Assembly (NCBI GenBank): GCA_035353815.1
Contig: DAOQAG010000002.1
Coordinates: forward strand, 18,130-82,129
DNA: 64,000 nucleotides
Origin: a bacterium
GTDB lineage: Bacteria; Zhuqueibacterota; Zhuqueibacteria; Residuimicrobiales; Residuimicrobiaceae
Direction of reading: 5' to 3'
Positions 13,128 to 58,344 of the stretch are shown piece after piece. Position numbers and translations under genes: made by a program. Positions within the stretch are counted from its first letter, which is position 1, and every line of letters starts with the position of its first letter. The notes under the pieces are model-generated. The model searched no databases. It worked only from the letters and a program-made list of their open reading frames with translations, and was not told where the DNA came from.

Positions 13128-14539
<1,412 letters not shown>

Positions 14540-14542
14540 ACT

Positions 14543-36369: not shown

Positions 36370-36550
36370 TTGGGCCCGGCAGGCATCGGCCGCTGTCGTT
36401 TCGGCAGCGGGGGCATGACCAGCTACGGCCGCTCCCGCTTGCTGTGAAAAATGCTTTGCATTTTCACGTACAGGTTGTAACTTGCTACTGGTACACGACA
36501 GGGGGATCGTGCAAGAGATTTTTAAAGGGGTTTAGGGAAAACAGCATCTT

Positions 36551-37174: not shown

Positions 37175-37372
37175 CCCTCCGGCGGGTGCAGCGCCGCGAT
37201 TTCTCAGGAACTGCAGGAGTGCATCCGCTCCGGCTTGAGCTCTTTGGGAGTGTTCATGGAGCCGTGCCACTTTTTTTTCAGGAATCATTTGACACCTTGA
37301 CCTGCATGGTGTATATTGAAGATGAAGGACAATTCCGACCAGGGTTTCATACTTGCGAAAGGAGGCCTCTTC

Positions 37373-38245: not shown

Positions 38246-38779
38246 ACCCGTGGTACCTGACCCGACGTGCCCTGTTAACAGCGGCACGGGCCGAAGGGGC
38301 CCGCAGCGGCTGGATGCACACCGGATGCAGGGCCACGCTCTTTGTTCTCCGGGAAAATTTTACTTGTATCGGTCTTTTTGTTTTTGTATACTAAAACGTT
38401 TTAAAAGGCCCTGCTGATAAACGATTGTGAAGATGCGCCGCGCCGCGGAACGGACCGGTCTGCATTCCTGGAACCCTCCTGTCCGCCGCGCCTCTCTTGC
38501 CTGCCCGAGCTTGAAGAATCATCCAAAAGAGAACCGCATTATTCGCAAGGCACCAGCCCGCAGGGCCGCACCGTACATTCCCATAGACCATCTGCAGCCT
38601 ATCGGCCGCAATCCGAATGGGCCACTCATCCGCATGCAGGGAAGGAGGTGACCGCCAAGCTCAAGGAGCGCACGGCAATGCAGGAATTTTCACCGGATAA
38701 CGCCATCCGTTATAGTGATGAGTCCTGGCATGTGTACGTTAACAATCCCTGAATGGTCTCACTAACAAGGAGAGTAAAA

Positions 38780-40718: not shown

Positions 40719-42743
40719 TTACCGTAAAGTCTTGCCAGCCTGCTTTTGGACGCGCGCCAGCAATGCCCGGGCGGGCTCATAAGCGGGGAAACGCCGGCTG
40801 GTCCGTTCCAGCAATTCCACGGCGGCCTCCGGCTTGCCGGAGGCCAGATAGGCGAGGGCCAGCATGTAGGCGTTATCGGCCGCCGTGGCGGGATCTTCCG
40901 GAAAGCGGGCCAGAGCCTCATAATAGCGTATCGCATCGGCAATCCGGCGTTCTTTGAGGCAAATATCTCCGAGCACCCGGGTTGCAACGCGGGTGGGCTC
41001 CACTTGCAGTGATGCCAGGAGCACGGTCTCTGCCTTGGAAAAATTACCGTCGTCATAGTGAATTTTTGCAAGATTGAGATAGGGCACAACCTGGTGTGGC
41101 AGCTGGTTGATGACGGATGCGTACTCCCGCGCTGCCTCTGGCCGCTCGCCGCGCTGCAGATAATAGGCGGCCGCGCGCTCGTGCACCGTGACCCAGCCGA
41201 TCTGGTTATGCACCGCCTGGTCGGCGAGCATGCGCAGGGTGTCTGTGGCGGGCACAGGAGTGACCCTTAATGGTTGGGTGTGGAAAGGCCAGCGCGCGGT
41301 CAGAAATTCGATCTTGCGCGCTGCCATGTACTCATCGACCGGTGTCAGCGGCCGGTTCTGCCAGAGCAGACTGTCGACCCCCGCGTCATCGCGGCCCCAG
41401 CGGCCGGCCGGGGCGAGGAGGCCCTGCCGCTGCATGATGCGGGCGTACTCCCTGGCCATGAGAAACTGCCCGAAAGCCGTGGGATGGAGATGTTCGCTGA
41501 TGAGATTCCGGCCGATCAGGGAATCGGGCGAAGCCGCCCGGAGGAACGCCTCGATATCCGCCATCAGGCACCCCTCCCGTCCGGCCATGGCGCGGATCGC
41601 AGCGTTGAAGCGGCTGTCGGTCCGGAACCGCAGAGCATCCAGATCCCGGGCGCGGCGATACTCGGACTCGGCCTCCCGCGCCCTCCCGGCGCCGTCCAGA
41701 CAGGCCGCGATGCGAAAATGGAGGTCGGCATAGCCGGAATCAAGCGCCGCTGCTGCATGAAATCGCACCAGGGCGGAATCGGCCTGACCCCGGGCCTGCA
41801 AATCACAGCCGCTCTGGTACAGACTCTGAAATGACCGCAGCATCTCCGGCGCCATGCCCGCTGCATGCTCCGAGACAAAGGGTGCCTGCTGGCGCAGGTT
41901 GCAGGCCTGGGTGGAAAAGATGACCGGTATATGCCGGGGCCGGCATGCCGCGGCGAGATCCTCCATGTTCTGTTGAAAAATATCCAGGGCCTGCCGATAC
42001 AGGCGGCTTCCCTGCACCACGGTCCGCCTCCCGGCGACCTGTTCCATCAGCGTGGCCTGGTTGAGTTCCGTTGCGGCCGGCTGGCCGGCCAGGCCGCGCA
42101 GGCGATGAATGACCTCCCGGACCAGTTGAAAGGTGCGCCAATGGACCAGGCGCAGATAGAGGAGGTTAAGGCTGCGCGAGGGCGCCAGGCGCGCGCGCGA
42201 GGCGACCCCGAGCGCGCCATAAAATTCATTGTGCCCGTCATAGACAATGAGGAGATCGGGCTGGTAGCGGAACAGCTCCCGGCCGATATCGAGCACCGTA
42301 TAGCTGTTGGTAGCCGTCATGCCGAGGTTGATCACCTCCACCGGGCGGTCCGGGCAGAGTGCCTTGAGACGGTCGCGCAGAAAAGCCGGAAAGGCTCCGT
42401 TGTACCAGTACGGATAGCCGACGGTCGTCGAGCCGCCGAGGCAAAAGATGCGAAAGGTTCCAGCCGGTTTTTCGGCAGCCAGATACTCCGGTGAAGGATC
42501 CGGGGTAAACGAGGTGCGGCTGAAATAGCGGTCCTTGCAGCCGGGATTAAGGGTATACCAGTCGCGGCCGGCCCAATGTTCCCGGGCAAAGAGGGCCAGG
42601 TCAGGGCCGAAATCGATCGTGCGCAGGAAAAGCTCGATCAAGCCCAGGAAGAGAAAGGGCAAGGCAACGAGCAGCAAGGTGAAGAGCCGTTTTCGCCGGG
42701 GATCGATGGCCCGGAGGGCGGCCTGGCGCTCTTTTTTTTTCAT
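40719..42743 (-). CDS. Membrane-anchored SGNH/GDSL-like hydrolase domain protein with C-terminal TPR repeats
   Basis: An N-terminal TM helix is followed by 'FRIFCLGGSTTVGYPY' (SGNH block I-like) and 'DGHNEFYG' (block III/V-like). The C-terminal about 200 aa are TPR-like helical repeats. Confidence 0.5.
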   Translation of the reverse strand: MKKKERQAALRAIDPRRKRLFTLLLVALPFLFLGLIELFLRTIDFGPDLALFAREHWAGRDWYTLNPGCKDRYFSRTSFTPDPSPEYLAAEKPAGTFRIFCLGGSTTVGYPYWYNGAFPAFLRDRLKALCPDRPVEVINLGMTATNSYTVLDIGRELFRYQPDLLIVYDGHNEFYGALGVASRARLAPSRSLNLLYLRLVHWRTFQLVREVIHRLRGLAGQPAATELNQATLMEQVAGRRTVVQGSRLYRQALDIFQQNMEDLAAACRPRHIPVIFSTQACNLRQQAPFVSEHAAGMAPEMLRSFQSLYQSGCDLQARGQADSALVRFHAAAALDSGYADLHFRIAACLDGAGRAREAESEYRRARDLDALRFRTDSRFNAAIRAMAGREGCLMADIEAFLRAASPDSLIGRNLISEHLHPTAFGQFLMAREYARIMQRQGLLAPAGRWGRDDAGVDSLLWQNRPLTPVDEYMAARKIEFLTARWPFHTQPLRVTPVPATDTLRMLADQAVHNQIGWVTVHERAAAYYLQRGERPEAAREYASVINQLPHQVVPYLNLAKIHYDDGNFSKAETVLLASLQVEPTRVATRVLGDICLKERRIADAIRYYEALARFPEDPATAADNAYMLALAYLASGKPEAAVELLERTSRRFPAYEPARALLARVQKQAGKTLR

Positions 42744-42845
42744 CGTATTCTCCATGAAGGGGATCCGTGCCGGATGCACGGGAAAATATAACGCAATAAA
42801 CCATTCGATTCAATTCCTATTTATCATTTCCTGGAGGTAAGGAAC

Positions 42846-45800
42846 ATGAAACTACCGAACAACCTGCTGGGATGGATTTTGCTGTTGTCGCTCATGCTGG
42901 CGGGTACGCTCTTTTCGGGTACGACCGGCAAGATCGCCGGTACCGTGACCGAAAAGGCGACGGGAGAAACCCTGCCCGGGGCCAACATTCTCGTCAACGG
43001 CACACGCCTGGGTGCAGTGACCGATCTCAGCGGACGGTACACCATTCTTGAGGTCCCGCCCGGGACCTACTCCCTGCAAGTGACCTTCCTGGGGCATCAG
43101 AAGACGATCGTCCATGACGTCCGGGTTTATATTGACCAGACCGCACGCATCGATGTCGCCATGGTCCAGGAAGCGATCGAGATCGGCGATGTGGTAGTGG
43201 TCGCCGAACGGCCGCTGATCAAGCCGGACGTGGCGACCAGTGTCGTGGCGGTTTCCGGCGCGGAGCTCAAGAGCCTGCCGGTCGCCAATGTCACCGACGT
43301 CATGGGCATGCAGGCCGGTATCGACGGCACCAATATCCGCGGGGTCGGCCTCGATGAAGCCCTCTTTATGGTCGATGGTGTGACCATGCGCGATCCACGC
43401 AACAACCAGGCGCTGACCAAGGTCGCTCTGAGCACGGTGCGCGAGATTTCCGTCGAACGCGGCGGATTTAATGCGGAATACGGCCAGGTGCAGTCCGGTA
43501 TCGTCAACGTCGTCACCAATGAAGGCAAGGCCAAGGGTTATTCAGGCAGCCTTAATCTGCGTCTGACACCGCCGACGCGCAAGTATTTCCACGGATCAGA
43601 CATGCCCGATGTCAATTCGACGCAATCCTACTGGCTGCGCCCCTTCTATGACGACGCCGTCTGCTGGACCGGCACTACCAGTGGCGCCTGGGACACCTAC
43701 ACGCAGTCCAAGTATCTCGAGTTCGAGGGCTGGAACGCGGTGTCGCAGCAGCTCTGCACCGACAACGATCCCAGCAACGATCTGACGCCGTTGGCGGCGC
43801 AACGGGTTTTCCAGTATTATACCCGCAAGCGCCAGATCAATGATGAGCCGGATTATGAGATCGATGGCGGCGTCGGCGGTCCGGTGCCGCTGGTTTCGAA
43901 AATGCTGGGCAACCTGCGCTTTTTCGCCTCCTATCGCGGCCAGAAGAGTCTGCTGATCTGGCCGAGCACCCGGCCGGATTATCGGGATTATGATGCCCGC
44001 ATCGTCGTCAATTCCGATATCAGCGATGCCCTCAAGCTGCGCATCTCCGGCCTCTCCGGAAAAATCAGCACCATGGCCGGCAACCGCGCCTCGGAGACCA
44101 CCTACAAGCAGTGGCCTTACGAGCTCGCCGGCACTACCCTCGGCACGGGCGGCTATGCCCTCTTCAATATGTACAGCGACTGGACCTACGGCCTTGCCGA
44201 CCGCACCCACCATGCTCTCTCCGCCAAACTGACCCACATGCTGAACAAATCGACCTATTATGAGGTATCGGCGGAGTATTTCCAGCGCAATTATGATACC
44301 CATTCGCCCTCGATGCGGGATACCTCCAAAACCACCGAGATCATCCCGGGCTACTTTTCCACCGCCACCCCCTATGGCGTGTTTTACGGCATCGACGGCA
44401 TCGTCAGCGGCATCAATGAAGGCAACCAGAACGCTCTCGCCCGCGACAAATCCGATGTCAGCGCGACCACGCTTAAGGCGGACCTGACCAGCCAGGTCAA
44501 TTTCAACAATCTGGTCAAGAGCGGCGTCGAATTCGTCTACAACGACCTCAACCTCAACTATGGCTATATCCGCATGCAAAGCGGCGGCTTGCAATACGAC
44601 AACCAGATCAAGATGCGCGATTTCCCGATCCGGGCTGCCTTTTATCTCCAGGACAAGCTTGAGACCAAGGGCTTCATCCTGAATGCCGGCCTGCGGCTCG
44701 ACTATAGCAACTCGCGCACCGACTGGTGGGCGCTGGATCCCTTCAACGCCCTGTTCTACTCCTATAAATATACGGAAACCGCAGAATTGCCCCTGACCAA
44801 GGCCAAAGGCCAGTGGCAGCTCAGTCCGCGTCTGGGCATCTCCCATCCCATCACCGACCGTTCCAAGCTCTACTTCAACTATGGTCATTTCAAGCAGATG
44901 CCGACCTACGAGTCCCAGTACCGCTTCGACCGTTCTTCCGACAATACCCTGGTTCGTTTTGGCGATCCCAATTTGACCCTGGCCAAGACTATCGCCTACG
45001 AGCTGGGGTACGATCACGATCTCTTTGACGGCCAGATCCTGCTGCAGTTGGCGGCCTTTTACCGCGACATCAGCGACCAGCAGAACACCACCTCCTACCG
45101 CCCGGCCTATGGTACCGCCTACACAGTGACGACGAGCACGGCCTACTCGGATATTCGCGGCTTCGAGTTGACCCTGCGCAAATCGGCGGGACGGTGGTTC
45201 TATGGATTCCTGAATTACACCTACCAGGCGACCTCCAACGGCGCCTTTGGTGAGAATTATGTTTTCGAGGATCCCAAGTCGCAGCAGGATTATGATGAAA
45301 ACACCGTCAATATTTATCAGACGCGCTCGGTGCCCTCTCCGTTCGCGCGCGCCAATCTGACCTTTGCGACCCCGCGGCAGTTTGGGCCGGCCGTGTTCAA
45401 CCATGCGATCTTTGGCGATGTGCTCGCCAACATCCTGCTGCGCTGGAACCAGGGCGGCTGGACGACCTACAATCCCAACAATGCCGGCACGACCAGCTTT
45501 AACAACAACACCAACAACAAGATCCAGAATAATATCCAGTACCTGGATTACTTTGACGCCACGCTGCGGTTGAGCAAGGCCATCCAGATCAACAAGATCA
45601 ATCTGCAGGTTTTTGCTGACATCAACAACCTCTTCAACACCCGGCGCCTCAATAACACCGGTGATCTGAACTACCGCAAGTCCCTGCATCTACCCAAAAG
45701 CGATGCCTATAACAATATTCCCGGTGATGACAAATTCGGCGATTACCGCAAGCCCGGGGTAGCCTGGCAGCCGATGGAGAACGGAGTCGACTTTAACTCG

Positions 45801-46037
45801 ATCCCCTCCTCCAACCGCGCCTGGTATTTCGACAAGTCCTCGGATGCCTACTGGTATTACACCGACAACATCTCGATCCCCGAGATCAAGGATCGCTGGG
45901 CCAAGGTCGAGCAGACCAAGGTGGACCAGGCCATCGAGGACAGGGCCTACATTGATATGCCCAATCCCTCCACTTACTGGTTCCTGAATCCGCGGACCAT
46001 CACCTTCGGCGTTCGTCTCGCCTTCGATATCGATTGA
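42846..46037 (+). CDS. SusC/TonB-dependent-receptor-like outer-membrane protein (CarboxypepD_reg-like N-domain + plug + large beta-barrel)
   Basis: A signal peptide is followed by 'GKIAGTVTEKATGETLPGANILVNGTRLGAVTDLSGRYTILEVPPGTYSLQVTFLGH' (CarboxypepD_reg-like). A plug-like segment ('DGTNIRGVGLDEALFMVDGVTMRD') precedes about 800 aa of alternating beta-strand character. Confidence 0.7.
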   Translation: MKLPNNLLGWILLLSLMLAGTLFSGTTGKIAGTVTEKATGETLPGANILVNGTRLGAVTDLSGRYTILEVPPGTYSLQVTFLGHQKTIVHDVRVYIDQTARIDVAMVQEAIEIGDVVVVAERPLIKPDVATSVVAVSGAELKSLPVANVTDVMGMQAGIDGTNIRGVGLDEALFMVDGVTMRDPRNNQALTKVALSTVREISVERGGFNAEYGQVQSGIVNVVTNEGKAKGYSGSLNLRLTPPTRKYFHGSDMPDVNSTQSYWLRPFYDDAVCWTGTTSGAWDTYTQSKYLEFEGWNAVSQQLCTDNDPSNDLTPLAAQRVFQYYTRKRQINDEPDYEIDGGVGGPVPLVSKMLGNLRFFASYRGQKSLLIWPSTRPDYRDYDARIVVNSDISDALKLRISGLSGKISTMAGNRASETTYKQWPYELAGTTLGTGGYALFNMYSDWTYGLADRTHHALSAKLTHMLNKSTYYEVSAEYFQRNYDTHSPSMRDTSKTTEIIPGYFSTATPYGVFYGIDGIVSGINEGNQNALARDKSDVSATTLKADLTSQVNFNNLVKSGVEFVYNDLNLNYGYIRMQSGGLQYDNQIKMRDFPIRAAFYLQDKLETKGFILNAGLRLDYSNSRTDWWALDPFNALFYSYKYTETAELPLTKAKGQWQLSPRLGISHPITDRSKLYFNYGHFKQMPTYESQYRFDRSSDNTLVRFGDPNLTLAKTIAYELGYDHDLFDGQILLQLAAFYRDISDQQNTTSYRPAYGTAYTVTTSTAYSDIRGFELTLRKSAGRWFYGFLNYTYQATSNGAFGENYVFEDPKSQQDYDENTVNIYQTRSVPSPFARANLTFATPRQFGPAVFNHAIFGDVLANILLRWNQGGWTTYNPNNAGTTSFNNNTNNKIQNNIQYLDYFDATLRLSKAIQINKINLQVFADINNLFNTRRLNNTGDLNYRKSLHLPKSDAYNNIPGDDKFGDYRKPGVAWQPMENGVDFNSIPSSNRAWYFDKSSDAYWYYTDNISIPEIKDRWAKVEQTKVDQAIEDRAYIDMPNPSTYWFLNPRTITFGVRLAFDID

Positions 46038-46072
46038 TGGCCGGCCACCAACCTAACGAATGGGAATGCACG

Positions 46073-48346
46073 ATGAATAAAAAGAAAACCAGACTTTTGC
46101 CCCTGCTGCTGGCATTCTGCGCCCTGCTGCTGGCCGGCAGCCTGAATACGACCGCTGCCCAGGATCTCGAGTGGATCCGCGTGGGCCAGCTCCAGTGCTT
46201 TTTTATGGATTTCGGCAACGAGTGCGAACTCTATCCCTTCACGACGACCAATTTTCTCGCCTGGCCCGCCCAGTACGGCGACGACCAGTACGCCACCCGC
46301 GCCAAGTCGGTCTGGATGGGGGCCACTGATTTTTACGATCCGGTCGAGAAAAAAACCAAATCGGTCAAGGTCATCGGCTCCGGGCCGCGCTACGATACCG
46401 ACAACCAGGCGTCGATGATCTTTTCAACCAGCATCAAACTGATCGGCCGCGAGGAACCTCCCAAGGTGATCGTCGACAACCAGAGCGGCTCCTCCAACAG
46501 CCTTTATGATGTCCTGGATGAGGTTGATCCCAACCTCCCCAGCGACCGCATGGTCGTCATCCGCTATAATACCTCCATGGGCGTCTCGGTCACCAAAAAG
46601 GTGCTCGGCTTCGTCCAGCAAAACCACGACAGCTATTTCATCCACGACTATATATTCAAGAATACCGGCATCTATAATACCAAGGGTGAGATCAACACCC
46701 AGACGCTCAAGAACTTTTGGGTCTATTTCGGTTACCGCTATGCTATGAACGGGGTCTGCTCGAACGGCTACAGCTCGGCCTGGGGCGATTTCGGCATGGA
46801 ATGGGGCTCCAGCACGGTGGCCCACGACTTCGGTCCCCCCTATCGCTCCCGCCCTGACAGCCTGCGCGGCTTCTATGCCTTTTACAGCCCCCTCAAGGGA
46901 AGCTATGGCACGCGCAACGCCGTCACCAGCCTCGGTTACGACTATGATTGGGGTTGCCCGAAGCAGACCGGAGGCGGCCCGAATCTCGATGGGCTGCTGG
47001 GCGCGGCCAAATTCGCCGGCTGCGTCACCTTGCTCGCCTCCAAGGGTCCCGGCGCCCTGTTCAACGTCGACGATTACGGTCAGCCCGCCACGGTGAACTA
47101 TTTCAACGCGGATGGCTCCACAACGACCAATCCGCAGAGCCAGTATGATGAAACGGCGATGAAATTGCGCTGGACCGTTATGACCGAGGGCCATCTGCAA
47201 AAATCGCTTTGGGAAGCCGTCGGCGACGGCCGCTATTATGCGGACTGGCTGAACACCGATCCGCTCCATCCCTCGGGCGGCATGTACGGCCAGGGCTATG
47301 GCCCCTATACCCTCGCCCCCGGCGACAGCATCCACATCATTTTTGCTGAGGGCATGAACGGCCTGAGCTGGGAGAAATGCCGCGAGGTGGGCGCCAACTG
47401 GTATCAGTACTTCGCCGGTACCGGCACCCCCACCCTGGTCAAACCGAACGGCGCAACCACCTCGAGCGTCTCGGAATACCAGAAGGCCTGGGTCTTTTCG
47501 GGTGTCGATTCCACCCTGCAGACCTACAAAAACGCCCGCGCCAATTTCCGTTCCGGCTATAACATCCCCCAGCCGCCGCCGGCGCCGGCCGCTTTCACCG
47601 TCGCCTCGGGTGGCGACGCCATCAGCCTGACCTGGGCCGACAACGCCGACAAGACCCCGCATTTCAACGGCTATGTGATCTACCGTTCGGAAGGGCTGGT
47701 CAAGGATTACCGCGCGGTGTATGAAAAGATCTTTGAATGCAGTGCCGCTGACGTCGTGCACAGCTATGATGACACCTCGGCAACGCGCGGATTTAACTAT
47801 TATTACTATATCCAGTCCAAGGATGACGGGACGCAGAACGACGTCAAACCGGGCGTTCCCCTCTACAGCAGCCGCTTTCTGACGATGACCTCGGTGGCGG
47901 CCAACCTCCTCCGCCCCGCTGGCGATCTGCTCGCTGAAGTACGCGTCGTCCCGAATCCCTACGATATCCGCTCCCGCAAGTGGCAGTTCGGCGAAGTCGG
48001 CCCTTATGACCGGATCATGTTCTATGGCATACCGCCCAAATGCAAGCTGAAAATCTTCACCGACGATGGCACCCTGATCTGGGAGACCCAGCACACCAAT
48101 GGCTCCGGCGACGAGCCCTGGGACTCCAAGACCTCCTCGAACCAGATCGTCGTCAGCGGCATTTATATTCTCTATGTCGAGGTGACCGAGGATATTTACG
48201 CAACCGACGACCGCGTCGCGCGCTATGACATCACCGATGAAAACCTCAAGACGATCTACAAGCAGGGCGACGTGATCTACCAGAAGGGGGACAAGATCTT
48301 CAGCGCCGGGCAATCGACCTTCCGCAAGTTCGTCATTATTCGATAA
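46073..48346 (+). CDS. Secreted hypothetical protein (757 aa) with FN3-like segment and internal T9SS-CTD/FlgD-Ig-like module
   Basis: Signal peptide 'MNKKKTRLLPLLLAFCALLLAGSLNTTAAQ', no catalytic motifs. The start overlaps the upstream stop region. Confidence 0.45.
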   Translation: MNKKKTRLLPLLLAFCALLLAGSLNTTAAQDLEWIRVGQLQCFFMDFGNECELYPFTTTNFLAWPAQYGDDQYATRAKSVWMGATDFYDPVEKKTKSVKVIGSGPRYDTDNQASMIFSTSIKLIGREEPPKVIVDNQSGSSNSLYDVLDEVDPNLPSDRMVVIRYNTSMGVSVTKKVLGFVQQNHDSYFIHDYIFKNTGIYNTKGEINTQTLKNFWVYFGYRYAMNGVCSNGYSSAWGDFGMEWGSSTVAHDFGPPYRSRPDSLRGFYAFYSPLKGSYGTRNAVTSLGYDYDWGCPKQTGGGPNLDGLLGAAKFAGCVTLLASKGPGALFNVDDYGQPATVNYFNADGSTTTNPQSQYDETAMKLRWTVMTEGHLQKSLWEAVGDGRYYADWLNTDPLHPSGGMYGQGYGPYTLAPGDSIHIIFAEGMNGLSWEKCREVGANWYQYFAGTGTPTLVKPNGATTSSVSEYQKAWVFSGVDSTLQTYKNARANFRSGYNIPQPPPAPAAFTVASGGDAISLTWADNADKTPHFNGYVIYRSEGLVKDYRAVYEKIFECSAADVVHSYDDTSATRGFNYYYYIQSKDDGTQNDVKPGVPLYSSRFLTMTSVAANLLRPAGDLLAEVRVVPNPYDIRSRKWQFGEVGPYDRIMFYGIPPKCKLKIFTDDGTLIWETQHTNGSGDEPWDSKTSSNQIVVSGIYILYVEVTEDIYATDDRVARYDITDENLKTIYKQGDVIYQKGDKIFSAGQSTFRKFVIIR

Positions 48347-48359
48347 AGGGAGCAGATAG

Positions 48360-49424
48360 ATGAAGAAAATAACCGCACTCCTCCTGTTCGGGATTTCCCT
48401 GGTCCTGCTCTCCTCCACCGGTGGAAATGCCCAGGACAATCAGAAACTGGCGCAAACCAGTTTCAAATTCCTGAGTGTCGTCTCCGACGCCCAGGGAGCC
48501 GCCATGGCCGGGGCGATGACCAGCCTGCCCATGAACTCCAGTGCTCTCTTTTTCAACCCGGCGGGGATGGCGAACATGGAAAAACGCGCCGACCTCTCGC
48601 TCAGCAATAACGAATGGATCGCCGACATCCGGCATTATACCGTGGGCCTGGCCCTCAATCCCGCCCAGGGCAAATACGGCGTCTTTGGCATGAGCCTGCA
48701 ATATGCCGATTTCGGCAGCTTCATCGGCACCATCGTCAGCAAGGACCCGGGCAATCTCAAGGGATACGAGGAAACGGGCCTCTTTGATCTCAACGCCTAT
48801 GCCGTGGGCATCGGCTACGCCAAGGCCCTGACCGACCGTTTCAGCGTCGGCGGGCAGGTGCGGCTGGCCCATCAGGATCTGGGCGACAGCAGGATCCCCA
48901 ATGAATCGAAAAATATCCCGATTTACAATGATTCGACCCATGCCATCATCGGCTATGAGGATTCGACAGCCACCGGCACCAATCGCCTCAATCCCCTGGT
49001 CTTTGACTTTGGCACCCAGTTCAAGACGGGCGTCAAGAGCCTGGTCTTCGGCATGTCGGTGCGCAACTTCTCCAAGGAAATCCAGTACGTCTATGAGCAG
49101 TTCCAGCTGCCCCTGGTCTTCACCATTGGCATCTCGATGAACCTCATGGATCTTTTCAGGGAGGTCCCCTATCATCAGACCCTGGTGATGAGCGTTGACG
49201 CCAGCCACTATCGCGACCATCCCGAGCAGGTGAAGGTGGGCCTGGATTACCGGATCATGAATACATTCGCCTTGCGCGGCGGATATGTCTCCGCCAGCGA
49301 TGAGAACAGCGGCTTTTCGTTCGGACTCGGCGTCTACAAGGCCGGCTTTGCCTTCGATTACGCCTATACCCCCTACGGGGTCTTCGATAAAGTCCAGCGC
49401 ATGACCGCCCGGATCTCACTGTAA
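48360..49424 (+). CDS. FadL/OMPP1- or PorV-like outer-membrane beta-barrel protein
   Basis: A signal peptide is followed by the N-terminal hatch motif 'DAQGAAMAGAMTSLPMNSSALFFNPAGMA' (G...A...NPAG), characteristic of the FadL/PorV superfamily. Strand periodicity is alternating, and the C-terminus 'TARISL' is aromatic-poor. Confidence 0.5.
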   Translation: MKKITALLLFGISLVLLSSTGGNAQDNQKLAQTSFKFLSVVSDAQGAAMAGAMTSLPMNSSALFFNPAGMANMEKRADLSLSNNEWIADIRHYTVGLALNPAQGKYGVFGMSLQYADFGSFIGTIVSKDPGNLKGYEETGLFDLNAYAVGIGYAKALTDRFSVGGQVRLAHQDLGDSRIPNESKNIPIYNDSTHAIIGYEDSTATGTNRLNPLVFDFGTQFKTGVKSLVFGMSVRNFSKEIQYVYEQFQLPLVFTIGISMNLMDLFREVPYHQTLVMSVDASHYRDHPEQVKVGLDYRIMNTFALRGGYVSASDENSGFSFGLGVYKAGFAFDYAYTPYGVFDKVQRMTARISL

Positions 49425-49444
49425 ACAAGGCCAAGGAGATTACC

Positions 49445-50701
49445 ATGATGAAACCTCGCACCATTTTGCATTTTGTGACCCTCCTGCTGGCGGCAACAGG
49501 GCTGTTCATGGCCGGATGCGAATTCGATGTGGCCGAACCCAAGTGGGAGGAACCGGCGCCCAGCACGGCTGCCGTCACGATCTCCGCCATCGACCCGGCC
49601 GCCGCTGTCGCGGGCGTGAACTATATCACCATCCATGGCGCCAACTTCACCGGGGCGATCGACACCCTGACCATCCAAAGCTCGGACAAGGACACCAGCT
49701 ACCGCTATCTTTATAATGGCGTCTTCTTTGACGATGTCAAGGCCGATGTCGTAGAATACTCGGATACCTTCATCAAGGTGCGCCGGCCCAAACTGGCCAC
49801 CGAGGCCTGTCAGGTCAAGGTCGTCTCCAACAAGGCCCTGCTGACCGCCCAATATGCCCAGCCCTACCGCATCGACGGGGTGGTCGGCCGCGTCGGCATG
49901 TTTAACGAAGACCTGCCCCTGGCCGTGACCGCGGTCGACGCCAATGAAAATCTCTACGTCGTCGAGACCAACACCCGCTACATCCAGAAAATCACCCCGG
50001 GCGGCGACAAGAGCAATACCGGCACCGCCCTGCGCGTGCCGTACGATGCCAGCATCGGCCCGGATGGCAACCTCTATCTGGCTGGCAACAACCGTGCGAT
50101 CGACCGTCTGGATGTAGCCACCGGCACGGTCGCCCGCTGGGTCAACCTCCCCTCAGGAAAAGTCGTCAGGTTTCTCGATTTCGACGCCAGCGGCTATTGC
50201 TTCTCAGGCGGCACCCGTACCGACCTGGTGGTGACTCCCTTCGATCTGGCCACCACGTCGATCTCGGCCGGCTTTTATGCCACCCAGGAGATTCTCGCCA
50301 TCCGCTGCTATAATGGCGCTGTATACGTCGCCGTCCGCGCGACGGCCGCAGATCCGGTCAAGATCTTCCGCCATGCCATCGGCGACAAGGGCAGCGTCGG
50401 CGTGCAGGAACTGGTGGTCGATCTCTCCACCGCCAGCGCATCTGCTGGCCGTACCCTCAAGGCGATCTCTTTCGCCGCGGACGGCACCCTGCTGCTGGCA
50501 ACGGATGCCGTTGACCCGCTGCTGAGCTACTCTCCGGCTACGGGCAAGATGGACTTTTACTATAAAGGGATTCTCAATCCCTACTGCAAGCACCTGGCGT
50601 GGGGCACCGGAAACTACCTCTATATGATTTGCGGGGATGATACCGCGGGGGAGGAGTGGACGGTGTACAAGGTTGATATGGGGATGGCCGCCGGCCGGTG
50701 A
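49445..50701 (+). CDS. Lipoprotein with IPT/TIG domain and NHL-type beta-propeller repeats
   Basis: Lipobox 'LFMAGC'. An IPT/TIG-like segment 'AVTISAIDPAAAVAGVNYITIHGANFTG' is followed by repeated 'NLYVVETN'/'GPDGNLYLAGNN' propeller-like blades. Confidence 0.5.
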   Translation: MMKPRTILHFVTLLLAATGLFMAGCEFDVAEPKWEEPAPSTAAVTISAIDPAAAVAGVNYITIHGANFTGAIDTLTIQSSDKDTSYRYLYNGVFFDDVKADVVEYSDTFIKVRRPKLATEACQVKVVSNKALLTAQYAQPYRIDGVVGRVGMFNEDLPLAVTAVDANENLYVVETNTRYIQKITPGGDKSNTGTALRVPYDASIGPDGNLYLAGNNRAIDRLDVATGTVARWVNLPSGKVVRFLDFDASGYCFSGGTRTDLVVTPFDLATTSISAGFYATQEILAIRCYNGAVYVAVRATAADPVKIFRHAIGDKGSVGVQELVVDLSTASASAGRTLKAISFAADGTLLLATDAVDPLLSYSPATGKMDFYYKGILNPYCKHLAWGTGNYLYMICGDDTAGEEWTVYKVDMGMAAGR

Positions 50702-50781
50702 GCCTCCCGCTACAACCCAGCCAAGGCCTGTGGTTCCCCCACAGGCCTTTTTGTTGAACATCGACTTTATGAGGATCATGC

Positions 50782-52713
50782 ATGCATGTTCAGATCTCCA
50801 GGGCGGTGACTCTCCTTGTGCTCGCAGGCGGCACGATGCTCGGTGCGCAGACGGCGGGCAATTGTTTTCTCGAGGATTTTCTGCCGCGAACCGCGATGCT
50901 ACCGCCGTCCCAAACCGCGGTAAAAACTGCGGTATCTCCGGGGGTGACCATTACCATCTCCACCCGCGACACCCTCGCCCGGGTTTCGCCCTATATCTTC
51001 GGCAATGCCCTGGCCGCCTGGGTCGGCAATGATGTGATGAACAAGGTGCTCATCGGCCATATGCAAAAGCTCGCCCCCACCCTGATCCGCTATCCGGGCG
51101 GCAGCTGGGGCGATATCTTTTTCTGGAATGGCGATCCGGGCCACTTGCCCTCCACCATCCCCGATGGCGCCAACAACGGCGCGCCGATTGCCCTCTCGCC
51201 GCAATACGGCGTGAATAGCTGGACGACCACGGTGGCCAACTACTATTCGCTGCGCGATCAGGTCAACGCCACTCAGGGACTGATCACCATCAATTATGGC
51301 TATGCCCGCTATGGCCTCGGCGACAAACCAGCGGAAGAAGCCGCCCATCTCGCCGCCGAATGGGTCCGTCATGATGCCGGCCGCACCCGATTCTGGGAAA
51401 TCGGCAACGAGAACGCCGGTCCGTGGGAGGCGGGCTGGCAAATCGATACCACGCGCAACAAGGACGGCCAACCCAAAATCATCACCGGGGCCTTATATGG
51501 ACGTCACTTCAGGATCTTCGCCGATTCCATGCGCGCTGCCGCGGCTGAACTGGACGAAACCATTTACATCGGCGGACAGATCCTGCACTATGATGGCACA
51601 ACGAGCTGGAATATCGCGGACCGGACCTGGAATGAGGGATTCTTGCGGGAGGTTGGAGATGCCGCTGATTTTTATGTGATGCATAACTATTTCGGCAGCA
51701 CGGGCGTGAGCATGGCCAAAAGCCAGATCGACCTGGCGCGCAATGAGATCAAGAAAAACATCACCTTTATCCGTCAGGATATCGCCCGTCAACAAGCCTT
51801 CAGCAAACCTGTCGCACTGACGGAATGGAACATGGTCGATCACCCCCAGGCCGCAACCTCCATCGCCAACGGCATGCAAGCCGTCGTGCTGACCTGCGAA
51901 ATGATCCAGAACAACTTTGGCATGTCCGCCCGTTGGCTGCTCGTCCACTGGGAGTCGGGCGGGATGTTCTATAAAGGCGCCAATGCCGCCATCCCGGCCT
52001 GGAGTCCGCGCCCCGACTTTTTTTATCTCTACTACCTGCAGCATTTCACCGGGGACCACAGCGTCAAATCGTCGGTCAGCGGCAGCAGCGATATCCTCTC
52101 CTATGCCACCACCTTTGCCTCCGGCGAGCTGGCGGTCGTGATCGTCAACAAGGGCGCCACGGAACAAACCCTGGAGCTGTCGCCGCAAGAGTTCCAGCCG
52201 GGCGACCGCTATTATCTTTATTCGCTCACAGGAACAAGCAACGAACAGTGGGCCCAAAAGGTCACGGTCAATGGCACCGGACCATCCGGAGCAGCCTGGG
52301 GACCGGTCGAGGGACTGGCTCATTTGCCGGCTCTGGCCTATGAAACGGGCGGCGGCATCCGCTTTTCCTCACCGCCGCTCTCGGTGCAATATGTGCTCAT
52401 CAGCAGCCCTGCCGCCGGCGTGACCTCCGCGCCGGCCGGCGCCCCCGAGCACTTTGATCTCGGCCAGAATTATCCCAATCCCTTCAACGCCCGGACGATG
52501 ATCTCGTACGCACTACCCCGTGAGAGTCCGGTGCACCTGCGCGTCCTCGACCTGAACGGCCGTGAGGTCGCGCTTTTGCTCGATGGCAGTGTACAGCAAG
52601 CGGGCGTGCATCGCATCGCCTTCGACGCCAGCCGGCTCAGCAGCGGCCTCTACCTCTGCCGGCTCGAGGCGGGCAGCCGGGCCGCGACGCGCAAGATGCT
52701 GCTGGTCCGGTAA
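50782..52713 (+). CDS. Clan GH-A glycoside hydrolase (GH51-like, possible alpha-L-arabinofuranosidase) with T9SS C-terminal sorting domain
   Basis: Signal peptide; 'IRYPGGSWGD', 'WEIGNENAGPWEAGWQ' (acid/base NE) and 'LTEWNMVDH' (nucleophile E) resemble GH51/clan GH-A. C-terminal 'LGQNYPNPFNARTMISYAL...GLYLCRL' is a T9SS CTD. Confidence 0.6.
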   Translation: MHVQISRAVTLLVLAGGTMLGAQTAGNCFLEDFLPRTAMLPPSQTAVKTAVSPGVTITISTRDTLARVSPYIFGNALAAWVGNDVMNKVLIGHMQKLAPTLIRYPGGSWGDIFFWNGDPGHLPSTIPDGANNGAPIALSPQYGVNSWTTTVANYYSLRDQVNATQGLITINYGYARYGLGDKPAEEAAHLAAEWVRHDAGRTRFWEIGNENAGPWEAGWQIDTTRNKDGQPKIITGALYGRHFRIFADSMRAAAAELDETIYIGGQILHYDGTTSWNIADRTWNEGFLREVGDAADFYVMHNYFGSTGVSMAKSQIDLARNEIKKNITFIRQDIARQQAFSKPVALTEWNMVDHPQAATSIANGMQAVVLTCEMIQNNFGMSARWLLVHWESGGMFYKGANAAIPAWSPRPDFFYLYYLQHFTGDHSVKSSVSGSSDILSYATTFASGELAVVIVNKGATEQTLELSPQEFQPGDRYYLYSLTGTSNEQWAQKVTVNGTGPSGAAWGPVEGLAHLPALAYETGGGIRFSSPPLSVQYVLISSPAAGVTSAPAGAPEHFDLGQNYPNPFNARTMISYALPRESPVHLRVLDLNGREVALLLDGSVQQAGVHRIAFDASRLSSGLYLCRLEAGSRAATRKMLLVR

Positions 52714-52880: not shown

Positions 52881-55334
52881 CTACTCGCTGCGAATCTCCA
52901 CAACTCCCTCCTGCAATCCCTCCGCACGGGCGGTCAGCACGATCGTGCCCGCCTGCTCGTTCGCCCGGACCACACAAAGACACTTGCCGTTGAAGGCCTT
53001 GCGCTGGTCGGCCTTGAAGGACTCCATGCTGGTTTGCAGACCATTGTCAACGCCGGCAATGGTTGCCGGTCCCTGCAGCGAGAACTTGACCAGAGTATCC
53101 GCACGCGGTACCAGCACGCCGTTGGCATCGACAATATCGATGGTGACAAAAGAGAGATCGCGGCCGTCGGCCTTGATGCGGGCGCGGTCGGCCGTCAGCA
53201 CGATCCTGGCCGCAGCGCCGGCCGTCTGCACGCGTTCCTCGAGCACCGGGACTCCGCCCTTGTAGGCCACGGCCTTGAGCGTGCCCGCCGTCCACGGCAC
53301 CCGCCAGACCAGCTGGAAGGTAGCGGCGGTCTTGACCTTTTTGCCCAGGGAGGTTCCGTTCAGGAAAAGCTCCACCTCTTCCTGGTTGGTATAGGCCCAG
53401 ACATCGATGAGTTCACCAGGCTTCCAGTTCCAGTGCGGAAAGAGGTGCAGCATCGGAGCTTTGGTCCATTCCGCCTGGTAAAAGTAATAGCCATCCTTGG
53501 GGAAGCCCGCGAGATCGATCAGGCCGAAATAGGAGCTCCGCGCCGGCCAGGGATAGGGCGTTGGCTCGCCCAGATAGTCAAAGCCGGTCCAGATGAATAT
53601 GCCGGAGACGAAAGGAGAATCCCGTACGATCCGCCAGGTATCAACATGGGTGGAACCCCAGGGAACGTGGCAGTTGTCATAGGCAGAACAGGTCAGATCG
53701 GGATTCATCGGCCCGATTTTGTTCCATTCGATCGGCCAGATCCGCACCGAGTCGGAGGGCATGTCGTAGGATCCCCGCGTGGCGATCGCCGAGTTGGTCT
53801 CGCTGGCGACCAGTTTCAGTCCCGGGTACTGCTTCGGGAAGTTCGGCAGGTCCTTCTCATGATAATTGCGGCCGACAATGTCCAGGGCACCGGAACGGAT
53901 GAGGCGGTTCTGCAAGGAGGGATCATTACAGGCCGAGGTGATCGGCCGCGTCGGATCGAGGCCGCGGACGATGCCGGCCAGCTCCTGCGCCATGGCGGTG
54001 CCGCTGTCGTCCCACTGCTCGGGGATCTCATTGCCAATGCTCCACAACACTACACTCGGGTGGTTGCGGTCGCGCAGGATCAGATCTTCGAGATCGCGGC
54101 GGTGCCATTCATCCCAGTCGAGATGATAGTCGAAGGGATTCTTCTCCATCTTCCACATATCAAAGGCCTCGTCCATCACCAGAAATCCCATCCTGTCGCA
54201 GAGATCGAGCAGCTCGGGGGCCGGAGGATTGTGCGAGGTGCGGATCGCATTGCAGCCCATAGCCTTGAGCAGCTCGAGCTGCCGCTCGAGGGCGCGCTCA
54301 TTGACCGCCGCGCCCAGACAGCCGAGGTCGTGGTGATTGCACACACCAAGCAGTTTCATCGCCACACCGTTGAGGGAAAATCCCTTCTCGAGATCGAAAA
54401 CGAAGCTGCGGATGCCAAAGCTCGTCTCGCAGCGATCCTCTTCCCCGCCCTGCGCCCGGATCCGGGTGACCGCGCGGTAAAGGACCGGGCTGGCCACCGA
54501 CCAGAGCGCAGGCTGTGGTAGTGCCGTTTTCTGCTCGACCGTGGCCGCCGCACCCGGCTGCAGGTTCTTTTCATCGCGCAGGGTCGCCACCCTCTTGCCG
54601 GCAGGATCGACGATATCGGTCTCCACCGTCACCTGCTGCGCCTGTTCCGTGGCATTGCATACCCGCGTCTGCAGCCGGATCTCCGCCTTTTCCGCCGAAA
54701 CCACCGGCGTGGAGACCCAGGTGCCCCAATGATCGACGTGGATGCGCCCGGTGACGGTCAGCCAGACATTGCGATATATGCCCGAGCCGGAATACCAGCG
54801 GGAATTGGGCTGCTGCGAATTGTCGACGCGCACGGCCACAAGATTGGCACGGGCGCCGAACCGGAGCCACGGGGTGAGCTCGTAACGGAACGAGCTGTAG
54901 CCGTAGGGCCGCTTGCCGAGGTAATGGCCATTGATCCAGACCTCGGCGTTGCGGTAGACGCCGTCGAAATCGATAAAGATGCTGCGGCCCGAGTCGCCTG
55001 ACGCCAGCGCAAAGCTCTTGCGGTACCAGCCGATGCCGCCCGGCAAGGCGCCGCCACCGGTGGTAGCGGGATTATTCTGGTCGAAGCTCCCCTCGATGCT
55101 CCAGTCATGCGGCAGGTCGAGGGTGCGCCATCCGCTGTCGGCGAAACCGGGTTCCTGGGCGCCGGGAAGATCTCCGAGGTTGAATTTCCATGCCTTGGTG
55201 AATCGCTCGATACGGCGCGACGGCGCCGCGGGGCCGGCGCAGCCGCTCGCTAGGGCGGCCAACGCCGCCAGCAGGGCAAATGAGAGAGAGATGGCCATCT
55301 TGCGCGGGATTTTCATGGTGTTCCTCTTCTTCAC
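52881..55334 (-). CDS. GH2 family beta-galactosidase-like glycoside hydrolase (lipoprotein signal)
   Basis: Lipobox 'LASGCAG'. Present are a GH2 sugar-binding N-domain ('WRTLDLPHDWSIEG'), an Ig-like domain, and a TIM barrel with 'NHPSVVLWSIGNE' acid/base and nucleophile regions. 817 aa. Confidence 0.8.
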   Translation of the reverse strand: MKKRNTMKIPRKMAISLSFALLAALAALASGCAGPAAPSRRIERFTKAWKFNLGDLPGAQEPGFADSGWRTLDLPHDWSIEGSFDQNNPATTGGGALPGGIGWYRKSFALASGDSGRSIFIDFDGVYRNAEVWINGHYLGKRPYGYSSFRYELTPWLRFGARANLVAVRVDNSQQPNSRWYSGSGIYRNVWLTVTGRIHVDHWGTWVSTPVVSAEKAEIRLQTRVCNATEQAQQVTVETDIVDPAGKRVATLRDEKNLQPGAAATVEQKTALPQPALWSVASPVLYRAVTRIRAQGGEEDRCETSFGIRSFVFDLEKGFSLNGVAMKLLGVCNHHDLGCLGAAVNERALERQLELLKAMGCNAIRTSHNPPAPELLDLCDRMGFLVMDEAFDMWKMEKNPFDYHLDWDEWHRRDLEDLILRDRNHPSVVLWSIGNEIPEQWDDSGTAMAQELAGIVRGLDPTRPITSACNDPSLQNRLIRSGALDIVGRNYHEKDLPNFPKQYPGLKLVASETNSAIATRGSYDMPSDSVRIWPIEWNKIGPMNPDLTCSAYDNCHVPWGSTHVDTWRIVRDSPFVSGIFIWTGFDYLGEPTPYPWPARSSYFGLIDLAGFPKDGYYFYQAEWTKAPMLHLFPHWNWKPGELIDVWAYTNQEEVELFLNGTSLGKKVKTAATFQLVWRVPWTAGTLKAVAYKGGVPVLEERVQTAGAAARIVLTADRARIKADGRDLSFVTIDIVDANGVLVPRADTLVKFSLQGPATIAGVDNGLQTSMESFKADQRKAFNGKCLCVVRANEQAGTIVLTARAEGLQEGVVEIRSE

Positions 55335-58177: not shown

Positions 58178-58344
58178 GAATTCTTCCTTTCCTCGATTGG
58201 TAAATACAGCAGGAGGCCCGGCGCGGGCCGGCTGTTCAATATACAAACAAGAAGTTAAAAAAGCCAAGAATAATCCTTTGATTTGGCCCCGAATTGTCGT
58301 ATATTGACAAATGATTCATTATTCACAATACTGAGAACCACTGC

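Follow-up and report, generated by a model that had tools for sequence, protein, structure and literature searches.

A recurrent four-gene outer-membrane cassette, probably the core of a SusD-less glycan-import system with a surface partner related to type IX secretion cargo

The window, a 64,000-nucleotide stretch of bacterial DNA, contains four co-directional genes (g1 to g4) for proteins of outer-membrane type, followed by a strong terminator-like hairpin (Table 1); the ORF positions bear out this arrangement, which had been proposed from the sequence alone. An SD-like GGAGG motif lies about 8 nt 5' of the g1 ATG. The gaps of 14 and 21 nt given earlier are each too large by one, as 13 nt separate g2 from g3 and 20 nt separate g3 from g4. 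The 4-nt overlap claimed for g1 and g2 exists only for the TTG start (770 aa) and is absent for the 757-aa product, whose ATG lies 35 nt past the g1 stop and agrees with the N-termini of homologues; public gene calls start at the ATG in between (769 aa). Signal peptides of the four products were judged by eye only.

Table 1. Features of the cassette and its surroundings (positions in the window; aa, residues of the product; CTD, C-terminal domain; T9SS, type IX secretion system)
Feature	Position	Strand	Description
g0 (accessory)	38753..40609	+	T9SS type A CTD protein (Por_Secre_tail), internally duplicated domain of unknown function
Esterase gene (accessory), divergent from g1	40719..42779	-	GDSL/SGNH esterase-TPR fusion (Pfam)
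g1	42846..46037	+	TonB-dependent outer-membrane transporter, 1063 aa
g1 domains			signal peptide; CarboxypepD_reg-like aa 30-118; plug aa 128-217; beta-barrel Pfam match aa 433-929
g2	46073..48346	+	secreted protein, unnamed family, 757 aa; alternative starts 46034 TTG, 46037 ATG
g2 domains			signal peptide aa 1-30; super-sandwich aa 31-432; helical hairpin aa 433-495; FN3 aa 496-612
g2 CTD	47909..48343	+	divergent T9SS-type, aa 613-757
g3	48360..49424	+	PorV/PorQ-family (FadL-like) outer-membrane beta-barrel, 354 aa, N-terminal NPA motif
g4	49445..50701	+	lipoprotein (Cys25), IPT/TIG + six-bladed SMP30/NHL-type beta-propeller, 418 aa
Terminator-like hairpin closing the g1-g4 unit	50723..50749	+	11-bp stem, 7 GC pairs, then TTTGTTG (T-run)
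g5 (accessory)	50782..52713	+	T9SS type A CTD protein, clan GH-A-like catalytic region (WEIGNE, TEWN motifs)
GH2 gene (accessory)	52881..55334	-	GH2 glycoside hydrolase (Pfam)
GH31 gene (accessory)	55331..58267	-	GH31 glycoside hydrolase with PA14 insert (Pfam)

The g1 protein matches CarbopepD_reg_2 (63.8 bits), Plug (33.5 bits) and TonB_dep_Rec_b-barrel (64.3 bits) above the curated Pfam cut-offs. The CarboxypepD_reg-like N-terminal domain is as previously described, and the plug and barrel, whose absence had been set beforehand as a possible refutation, are both predicted by these matches. The assignment of a TonB-box-like segment (DVVVVA) rests on inspection of the sequence alone. On the SusC/RagA model TIGR04056 the protein reaches only 73 bits, the cut-off being 368, and that over the N-terminal part alone. 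The product indeed lacks a terminal aromatic residue (it ends ...RLAFDID), but the Phe of the terminal strand is conserved; as many homologues stop exactly at this residue (...LSF), the supposed peculiarity is a mere extension of 3-4 residues.

At E <= 0.1 the g2 protein matches no Pfam family, SusD families included, and no lipobox is apparent in it. The sequence-only reading, for which SusD homology would have been a possible refutation, is upheld in this respect. It had described nothing beyond an FN3-like stretch and a CTD-like module; both are confirmed, but a super-sandwich domain of about 400 aa had been overlooked. The best fold matches of this domain are the non-catalytic N-domains of GH15, GH94 and GH65, and 2 of 48 aligned g2 homologues additionally match CBM5/12. 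The g2 module also occurs fused to BNR/Sortilin propellers, to beta-helix repeats and, in P0431, to a GH5 cellulase. It is quite unlikely that g2 instead represents a new family of glycoside hydrolases or lyases, an enzyme anchored at the surface that cuts before import in the manner of SusG rather than binding: its top fold matches are non-catalytic, being joined to a genuine GH5 catalytic domain is what one expects of an accessory module, and the module remains 36-57% identical across loci with different CAZyme sets. Glycan binding by g2 is nevertheless an inference, because the super-sandwich of solved enzymes is a non-catalytic accessory domain and not a proven lectin. Cassettes differ less in g2 than in g4, which suits a role of g2 as a structural part or lid better than one as a substrate-specific binder.

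The best-conserved region of g2 is its C-terminal tail (74-80% identity versus 57% for the N-domain), which in cassette-type proteins ends in a near-invariant RKF[VI][VI]IR. The tail of the window protein matches neither the type A nor the type B CTD models, and the PorZ CTD model is the only one that it does match (E 7e-6). Weak matches to CHU_C (type B) are seen in 12 of 48 homologues, and the alignment between a profile of the window tail and a local type A CTD is no more than weak (hhalign probability 9%). Long g2 paralogues terminate in a canonical Por_Secre_tail.

The g3 barrel covers 324 of the 326 positions of the PorV/PorQ family profile NF033709 (167.9 bits, cut-off 90). Its scores on the individual PorQ (81.9 bits) and PorV (61.7 bits) models are below the equivalog cut-offs, and PorP/SprF models are absent among its matches. 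The sole match among PDB sequences is Flavobacterium johnsoniae PorV (6h3i), with whose WNPAKYA the FFNPAGMA of g3 aligns; the FadL/PorV hatch motif (NPAG) reported earlier is present.

The proposal for the g2-g3 pair, a C-terminal beta-sandwich of T9SS type that stays on the protein and docks on a FadL-like, 14-stranded barrel of the PorV family to hold it at the cell surface, invites comparison with the PorZ-PorQ and PorU-PorV pairs of Porphyromonas gingivalis. The CTD of PorZ stays on and binds PorQ (PMC10202324). The g2 tail resembles the PorZ CTD most closely, g3 scores best on PorQ among the T9SS equivalog models, and PorZ (5m11) is among the fold matches for g2. Taken literally, these resemblances would make g2 and g3 the PorZ and PorQ of this lineage, general parts of the T9SS attachment complex that merely adjoin a transporter gene. 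This is hardly tenable, as both fall far short of the equivalog cut-offs (PorZ 21-25 versus 260, PorQ 82 versus 220), and the passenger of g2 is a super-sandwich plus FN3 rather than two beta-propellers. Unlike single-copy core secretion machinery, moreover, the pair occurs several times per genome, always with a TonB-dependent transporter and each time with a different CAZyme set.

The g4 protein was previously described as an IPT/TIG plus NHL-propeller lipoprotein, which is sustained by its lipobox (FMAGC) and by the six-bladed SMP30/NHL-type propeller of its AF2 model (pLDDT 89). Its TIG score is just below the cut-off (20.5 versus 20.9), but most g4 homologues carry PF01833. The protein matches IPT-propeller proteins of Bacteroides thetaiotaomicron, one of which has been deposited under the name of an auxiliary nutrient binding protein. 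Sequence identity to these proteins (PDB 3tc9, BT_3476, and 3hrp) is only 8-11%, and g4 itself has no known ligand. It is a candidate surface glycan-binding protein.

The order g1-g2-g3-g4 is found in about 40 loci, several per genome, labelled Ignavibacteriota, KSB1, Kryptoniota, Melioribacter, Calditrichota and Marinimicrobia. The cassette is therefore conserved across several FCB-group lineages outside the Bacteroidia, and the loss of synteny that had been named in advance as a refutation is not seen; such recurrence makes the arrangement more than chance. All homologues derive from metagenome-assembled genomes, with no cultured isolate identified among them, and we found no published description of the cassette. 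The g1 gene lies directly upstream of g2 in 39 of 39 places, and g4 is downstream in 31 of 35 (tblastn). The special g2 tail is accompanied by a downstream g3 in 36 of 37 places, whereas among g2-module proteins with other, canonical T9SS tails none of 4 has a g3 and none of 3 a g1. The co-occurrence of tail and barrel is strict, although the contrast of 36/37 with 0/4 overstates the statistics as the loci are not phylogenetically independent. In one locus (L017) g1 and g2 have no g3 in their vicinity, and another (L042, KSB1) has two cassettes in tandem.

This pattern bears on whether g3 is a private anchor of g2 or a PorV paralogue dedicated to all local T9SS cargo (g0, g5, CBM9-CTD proteins and g2), which it would shuttle or keep near the transporter. 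PorV is known to shuttle cargo with type A CTDs (PMC10202324), and at least one canonical Por_Secre_tail protein adjoins nearly every cassette examined. However, it is the special g2 tail, rather than type A cargo, that g3 accompanies; L045 and L050 contain such cargo, g2-module proteins included, without an adjacent g3. Given also that g3 scores higher as PorQ than as PorV and that the strongly conserved tail points to a one-to-one partner, the general role is unlikely.

The window encodes further type A CTD proteins, a link to the T9SS. One of these, g5, has matches to Por_Secre_tail (35 bits) and TIGR04183 and weak ones to GH51 arabinofuranosidases; an orthologue (51% identical) lies 3' of g4 in the Marinimicrobia-labelled L040. 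Orthologues of g0 are near the cassette in L002, L003, L006, L040, L043 and L044, the GDSL/SGNH esterase-TPR gene adjoins cassettes in many other loci, and the GH31-PA14 architecture recurs in L043 and L044. Each cassette adjoins a different set of CAZymes and regulators. On a single 3.0-Mb contig, for instance, a clade-A cassette lies next to GH31-PA14, GH13 and GH2 (L043), and a clade-B cassette is accompanied by a sigma-54 two-component system, an SSF symporter, a CBM9-CTD protein and GH94 (L047); L046 and L048 have the same surroundings as the latter, with GH5 in addition in L046. HTCS regulators are found beside L040 and L044. Overall, the related loci contain HTCS or sigma-54 regulators, GH13, GH5, GH94, CBM9 and sugar symporters, and together with the GH2, GH31-PA14 and GH-A-like enzymes of the window these support the previously suspected link to adjacent hydrolases. 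Membership of g3 in the FadL superfamily, the frequent esterase gene and the peptidase genes also present in the window leave room for a non-carbohydrate nutrient, such as peptides, a metal chelate, or a lipid passing through g3 after esterase action. We regard this as highly improbable, since the genes around the cassettes consistently encode CAZymes, CBM proteins, sugar symporters, sugar kinases, epimerases and HTCS-type regulators, and the folds of g4 and of the g2 N-domain are carbohydrate-associated. Xyloglucan is a plausible substrate, but this has not been shown.

Taken together, we infer from genomics and predicted structure, with a probability of roughly 0.6, that g1-g4 form the outer-membrane core of a SusD-less polysaccharide-utilisation locus in which g2 is anchored by its tail on g3. 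A SusD-less glycan importer and a T9SS-linked surface complex had been offered as alternatives; the two seem to describe a single cassette for glycan import, in which components of T9SS type apparently deliver the surface partner and hold it in place. In this cassette g1 would be the TonB-energised channel for oligosaccharides, and g2 would be exported by the T9SS, a route that is itself inferred. The CTD of g2 may then remain uncleaved and dock on its dedicated barrel; retention and specific contact are inferred because the tail is the best-conserved region, has a near-invariant terminus and co-occurs with g3. Docking would present the carbohydrate-binding-type super-sandwich at the cell surface beside g1, a presumed contact, where it might capture or hand over glycan chains, binding and substrate being equally conjectural. 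The surface lipoprotein g4 would supply substrate-specific binding, and cleavage would fall to the T9SS-secreted g5 and g0 and to the putatively periplasmic GH2 and GH31 enzymes.

The cassette probably fulfils, with different parts, the role that the SusC/SusD pair has in sugar import by Bacteroides. As in SusC/SusD (RagA/RagB) loci, the first gene encodes a large TonB-dependent transporter with a CarboxypepD_reg-like N-terminal domain, that of the surface partner is directly next, genes for lipoproteins of surface glycan-binding type follow, and several copies per genome lie among CAZymes and HTCS-type regulators. In contrast, g2 has no SusD Pfam match, TPR/alpha-helical fold or lipid anchor, g1 does not reach the SusC/RagA subfamily cut-off, and the cassette has an obligatory third component in its PorV/PorQ-family barrel. 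In Proteobacteria such as Xanthomonas, the carbohydrate utilisation (CUT) loci likewise place a SusD-less TonB-dependent transporter among CAZymes; they are not known to have a PorV-family barrel, T9SS cargo or a g2-type protein. The pairing of a cargo gene with that of a dedicated PorV-like barrel, proposed as a surface anchor, is shared with type B cargo and PorP/SprF (e.g. SprB-SprF of F. johnsoniae). There the cargo and its cognate barrel are co-encoded and the CTDs are probably uncleaved (PMC10202324). Unlike in these systems, g3 fits the PorV/PorQ family model, the proposed function is tied to nutrient import and not to gliding adhesins, and the g2 tail resembles a derived type A tail, with a PNPY start, an SG-Y-I strand and a K-x-x-x-R end.

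The tight packing that the sequence-only reading described for the four co-directional genes of the cassette (g1 to g4) is real, with spacers of 13 nt (g2-g3) and 20 nt (g3-g4) rather than the 14 and 21 nt given there. The 4-nt overlap of g1 and g2 exists only if the TTG start of g2 is used, and the 757-aa product then reported corresponds to the last of the three possible starts, 35 nt past the g1 stop. This last start is preferred by the N-termini of homologues, and public gene calls take the ATG at 46037. A GGAGG lies directly 5' of g1 and a GC-rich hairpin 3' of g4, features compatible with a predicted four-gene transcription unit. A scan for sigma-70 promoters gave no signal above background, by a method that may not suit this lineage, so that of the transcription signals we rely on the terminator-like hairpin alone; Rfam and tRNA scans of the whole window returned no match. 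The window has a GC content of about 60%, and its sequence is identical to metagenome contigs of JGI 3300025858 and ENA ERZ27257449.

Positions of the cassette genes and neighboring features in the window
Feature	Position	Strand	Description
Secretion ATPase	13124-15736	-	T2SSE-type, beside a ParA/MinD-like AAA protein
ORF	36485-38287	-	600 aa, no family match
g0	38753-40609	+	618-aa T9SS type A CTD protein
Esterase	40719-42779	-	686-aa GDSL/SGNH esterase with C-terminal TPR repeats, divergent from g1
g1	42846-46037	+	1063-aa ORF
g1 C-terminus	46010-46037	+	...FGVRLAFDID
g2	TTG 46034, ATG 46037 or ATG 46073 to 48346	+	ORF
g3	48360-49424	+	354-aa ORF
g4	49445-50701	+	418-aa ORF
Hairpin	50723-50749		11 bp, with T-run
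g5	50782-52713	+	643-aa T9SS type A CTD protein

Judged by its profile matches, the g1 product is a TonB-dependent transporter, passing the curated Pfam cut-offs for both the Plug (PF07715, 33.5 bits against 23.9) and the TonB-dependent β-barrel (PF00593, 64.3 bits against 27); its CarboxypepD_reg-like domain also scores above the Pfam cut-off, and a search against PDB sequences found no match. It cannot be assigned to SusC/RagA, as it reaches only 73.4 of the 368 bits required by TIGR04056, with the match confined to aa 29-203, and the gene downstream of it, g2, shows no SusD Pfam match and has a β-rich fold. The terminal aromatic residue at first thought to be missing from g1 is merely followed by a minor C-terminal extension: the last strand retains the conserved Phe with which outer-membrane barrels usually end, many homologues, the deeper ones among them, stop exactly there, and proteins of the window clade are 3-4 residues longer (three in g1).

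The possibility that g2 is a SusD/RagB homolog, which would have reduced the locus to an ordinary polysaccharide-utilization locus (PUL), can be excluded. There is no match to PF07980, PF12771 or PF14322, none of 48 homologues matches a SusD family, SusD is absent from the structure searches, and g2 lacks a lipobox. An AlphaFold2 model built from the 48 homologues (pLDDT 86.3, pTM 0.81) instead predicts a signal peptide, a β super-sandwich of about 400 aa, a helical hairpin, an FN3 domain and a C-terminal β-sandwich. The segment aa 31-432 superposes on solved super-sandwich domains of the galactose-mutarotase-like/glycoside hydrolase (GH) N-terminal fold. A rival reading, in which g2 is a new surface enzyme, we regard as quite unlikely. 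No Pfam domain is detected in g2 at E <= 0.1, and PDB sequences yield weak FN3 matches only. Its close relatives number in the hundreds, every one labeled hypothetical. A g2 profile run against 1.84 billion cluster representatives recovered 5301 at E<=1e-3, of which 400 also reach E<=1e-30; these are 50%-identity clusters of an unnamed family without a Pfam domain. No isolate-named protein occurs among the 120 best matches listed from a search seeded with the g2 of a Melioribacter MAG.

The g2 super-sandwich and FN3 module is also found fused to a GH5 cellulase (P0431, L045:10001-13036), and the g2 module to BNR/Sortilin propellers or Chlam_PMP/pectinesterase-like β-helix repeats (P0303, P0305, P0224, P0238, P0284). 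Those fusion proteins that were scanned finish in a canonical Por_Secre_tail, and the two readable neighborhoods of fused modules (L045 and L050) contain no adjoining transporter or PorV-like gene.

The g4 product meets the description of the IPT/TIG and β-propeller lipoproteins of PULs: it has a lipobox with an invariant cysteine (Cys25), its homologues bear IPT/TIG domains, and its model (pLDDT 89.2) matches six-bladed SMP30/NHL propellers and, across its whole length, two IPT-propeller proteins of B. thetaiotaomicron. One of these is BT_3476 (3tc9), which its PDB entry calls an auxiliary nutrient binding protein. Glycan binding by g4 is inferred, as is its surface exposure, for which the sole support is the acidic stretch that follows the lipidated cysteine (CEFDVAE); the underlying rule was established for Bacteroidota (PMC12578637).

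The gene order recurs in relatives, the absence of which would have counted against the sequence-only reading. The census covers 49 places occupied by g2 relatives, drawn from 37 fetched genome loci and further metagenome loci labeled Ignavibacteriota, KSB1, Kryptoniota, Melioribacter, Calditrichota and Marinimicrobia; automatic labels of some MAGs as Cytophagia or Chitinophagaceae were not trusted. The g2 protein ends in a putative, divergent T9SS-type C-terminal domain (CTD; aa 613-757), hereafter the cassette-type tail, which is unlike the canonical Por_Secre_tail. Where this tail is present, g1 lies directly upstream in 39 of 39 cases, g3 downstream in 36 of 37 and g4 downstream, by tblastn, in 31 of 35; with other tails the corresponding figures are 0/3, 0/4 and 0/3. 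At L048 g4 was missed by tblastn, yet a TIG gene occupies its position. The only complete locus without g3 (L017:3439-17154) has the order g4, g1, g2, with g4 upstream; as its g2 retains the cassette-type tail, the partner barrel must there be encoded elsewhere or be dispensable. In a deeper clade, with g2 about 38% identical, a gene for a lipoprotein of about 240 aa is often inserted between g2 and g3. This insert (e.g. L032:10118-10834, lipobox LISC; also in L021, L022, L026, L028, L034, L037 and L048) is only 22-24% conserved between loci and could be assigned to no family.

The PorV/PorQ family model NF033709 gives g3 a score of 167.9 bits (cut-off 90) in an alignment spanning profile positions 1-324 of 326, which makes g3, as far as sequence alone can tell, a full-length member of that family. 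It is neither PorV proper (NF033710, 61.7 against an equivalog cut-off of 250) nor PorQ proper (NF033711, 81.9 against 220), the latter score still exceeding the former; its sole sequence relative in the PDB is F. johnsoniae PorV. The g2 tail of the window protein matches neither the type A CTD models (PF18962/TIGR04183) nor the type B model, and precomputed PF18962 matches exist for a few g2 homologues. Compared with the type A CTD of g5 by hhalign, its motifs agree with only weak statistical support (probability 9%), BLASTP aligns the PNP motif alone, and a tail profile finds nothing meaningful among PDB sequences. In isolation the tail matches only the C-terminal domain of PorZ (E 7e-6), and PorZ (5m11) is also recovered by fold search with g2. 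That g2 and g3 are simply the general PorZ and PorQ is nevertheless hardly tenable, as g2 scores 21-25 bits against the 260 of NF052228, over the tail only, and its model contains no propeller.

The tail is the most conserved region of g2, with 74-80% identity to the window protein against 57% for the N-domain, and the motifs VPNPY, SG(I/L)YI and a terminal RKF[VI][VI]IR are near-invariant across cassette-type proteins. Such conservation would be unexpected of a generic, cleaved export signal. Neither g3 nor g1 adjoins the proteins that carry the g2 module with a canonical Por_Secre_tail, namely the GH5 fusion and the long variants in which BNR propellers or β-helix repeats are present. The existence of these paralogues argues that the g2 family is T9SS cargo, secretion itself being inferred. 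There are also precedents for retention: the CTD of PorZ stays on and binds the PorQ barrel, type B cargo is encoded with cognate PorP/SprF barrels and is probably uncleaved, and a review has suggested that cognate PorV-like barrels shield CTDs from cleavage (PMC10202324). Likewise, the FadL-like BamG grips a surface lipoprotein via its loops (PMC12578637). Taken together, tail conservation, the canonical-tail proteins lacking g3 and g1, and these precedents point to a specific interaction of g2 with g3 in which the tail is retained, contact and retention alike being inferred. The observed co-occurrence of tail and g3 carries less weight than its counts suggest, because cassette loci are not independent samples. 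Alternatively g3 could be a locus-wide PorV shuttle serving all CTD cargo, including the type A proteins encoded nearby; given that the presence of g3 follows one kind of g2 tail, we think this unlikely.

The cassettes occur in multiple copies, and their linkage to carbohydrate-active enzymes (CAZymes) is directly observed. On a KSB1 contig (L042:1-14694) the complete g1-g2-g3-g4 set occurs twice in a row, and two DUF362 plus FlgD_ig/CTD proteins come next. One 3.0-Mb contig holds both cassette kinds: a clade-A cassette (L043) near GH31-PA14, a CTD protein, GH13 and GH2, and a clade-B cassette (L047) near a sigma-54 two-component system, SSF symporters, a CBM9-CTD protein, an epimerase-fold CTD protein and GH94. 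The clade-B context is repeated in L046, with an additional GH5, and in L048. HTCS regulators are present in L040 and L044, and in L017 g2 is followed by a xylose-isomerase-like gene, an FGGY kinase, an aldose 1-epimerase and an HTCS-like (Reg_prop/Y_Y_Y) sensor. The cassette of the window is accompanied by a pair of type A CTD proteins, of which one is GH-A-like, and by GH2, GH31-PA14 and a GDSL esterase-TPR protein, with GH13-CBM48 about 10 kb upstream. The functional criteria for a PUL, namely a transporter, CAZymes, a dedicated regulator and paralogous loci with different CAZyme sets, are thus met, and the pattern is that of polysaccharide utilization loci, with a conserved import core present in duplicate copies, each of them coupled to another set of enzymes. 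Import of a non-glycan nutrient is, against this background, very improbable. The substrate in the window, which is inferred, could be xyloglucan or an α-glucan, and the choice remains undecided.

We conclude that the cassette is probably a TonB-dependent glycan import locus, and that it contains one unnamed protein family. In its working it resembles the SusCD-based PUL core, but it fails the SusC subfamily model and lacks both the SusD partner and its lipid anchor. Its anchoring logic is like that of PorZ-PorQ and of type B cargo with PorP/SprF, but it meets neither equivalog model. More tentatively, at a probability of roughly 0.4, we read it as a lineage-spanning alternative to SusCD in which a T9SS-secreted partner, not a lipoprotein, is held on a dedicated PorV/PorQ-like barrel by an uncleaved CTD, and the g2 super-sandwich as a new carbohydrate-binding module family. 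In the mechanism that we favor, all four proteins would be exported by Sec, g1 and g3 inserted into the outer membrane by BAM, and g4 lipidated and then flipped to the surface. By an inferred export route, g2 would pass the outer membrane via T9SS and remain docked on g3 through its tail; this and all other physical contacts are inferences. Glycan fragments released by T9SS-secreted enzymes would then be bound by the super-sandwich of g2 and the IPT-propeller of g4, ligand binding being likewise inferred. Powered by TonB, g1 would take in the oligosaccharides, whose degradation would be completed in the periplasm by GH2 and GH31. Between cassettes g4 varies more than g2, so that specificity may reside to a greater extent in g4 and g2 may act as a structural cap or hand-over element.

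If the more tentative reading is correct, this would be the first case of a nutrient-import complex that incorporates T9SS-type anchoring, with the g2 module family in use by Ignavibacteriota, KSB1, Calditrichota, Kryptoniota and Marinimicrobia. It would point to a second general route, with T9SS and a PorV-like barrel in place of a lipid anchor, for putting a binding protein atop a transporter of the outer membrane, and extend the emerging theme of FadL-like barrels (PorV, PorQ, BamG) that hold surface proteins. The unnamed g2 family would also gain an annotation. Environmental bacteria of the FCB group make up abundant populations in sediments and soils, in hot springs and digesters, and in the ocean. 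Prediction of their glycan use depends on susC-susD pairs, the tandem from which PULDB predicts PULs (PMC5753385). Having no SusD, the cassette is not a PUL in that sense and would escape such prediction, yet several are present per genome beside starch-/xyloglucan-type and cellulose-type enzyme sets; recognizing it would alter the counts of polysaccharide loci in these lineages. No published description of the cassette was found in the literature searched, which covered few subscription journals. The 2013 genome paper of Melioribacter roseus named Mros0761-0759, which sit in a GH13/GH31 operon beside endoglucanases, 'SusC, SusD and SusE' (PMC3534657). As Melioribacter MAGs carry the cassette, this annotation may deserve re-examination; the identity of these genes with the cassette is unchecked.

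Several neighbors of the cassette merit separate mention. Homologues of the GDSL/SGNH esterase-TPR protein lie beside cassettes in L001-L003, L006, L007, L022, L023, L027, L035, L042, L046 and L048, and the protein could be an accessory that regularly goes with them, for instance a glycan deacetylase. The g0 protein has no Pfam domain and consists in part of an internally duplicated domain of about 240 aa with the repeated motifs TW(I/L)G(V/I)KYYDGDTGEL and GKTVMKGVGNAD; orthologues are found near clade-A cassettes (L002, L003, L006, L040, L043, L044). The g5 protein, with WEIGNE and TEWN motifs and weak matches to GH51 arabinofuranosidases, probably represents a clan GH-A hydrolase missed by all Pfam models, and an orthologue (51% identical) follows g4 in the Marinimicrobia-labeled L040. 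The 600-aa ORF upstream of g0 is probably a spurious high-GC ORF, public calls (L038) giving LysE and Peptidase_C1 on the + strand. The T2SSE-type ATPase and its ParA/MinD-like neighbor, unrelated to the cassette, seem to belong to a Tad/type IV pilus-like cluster.
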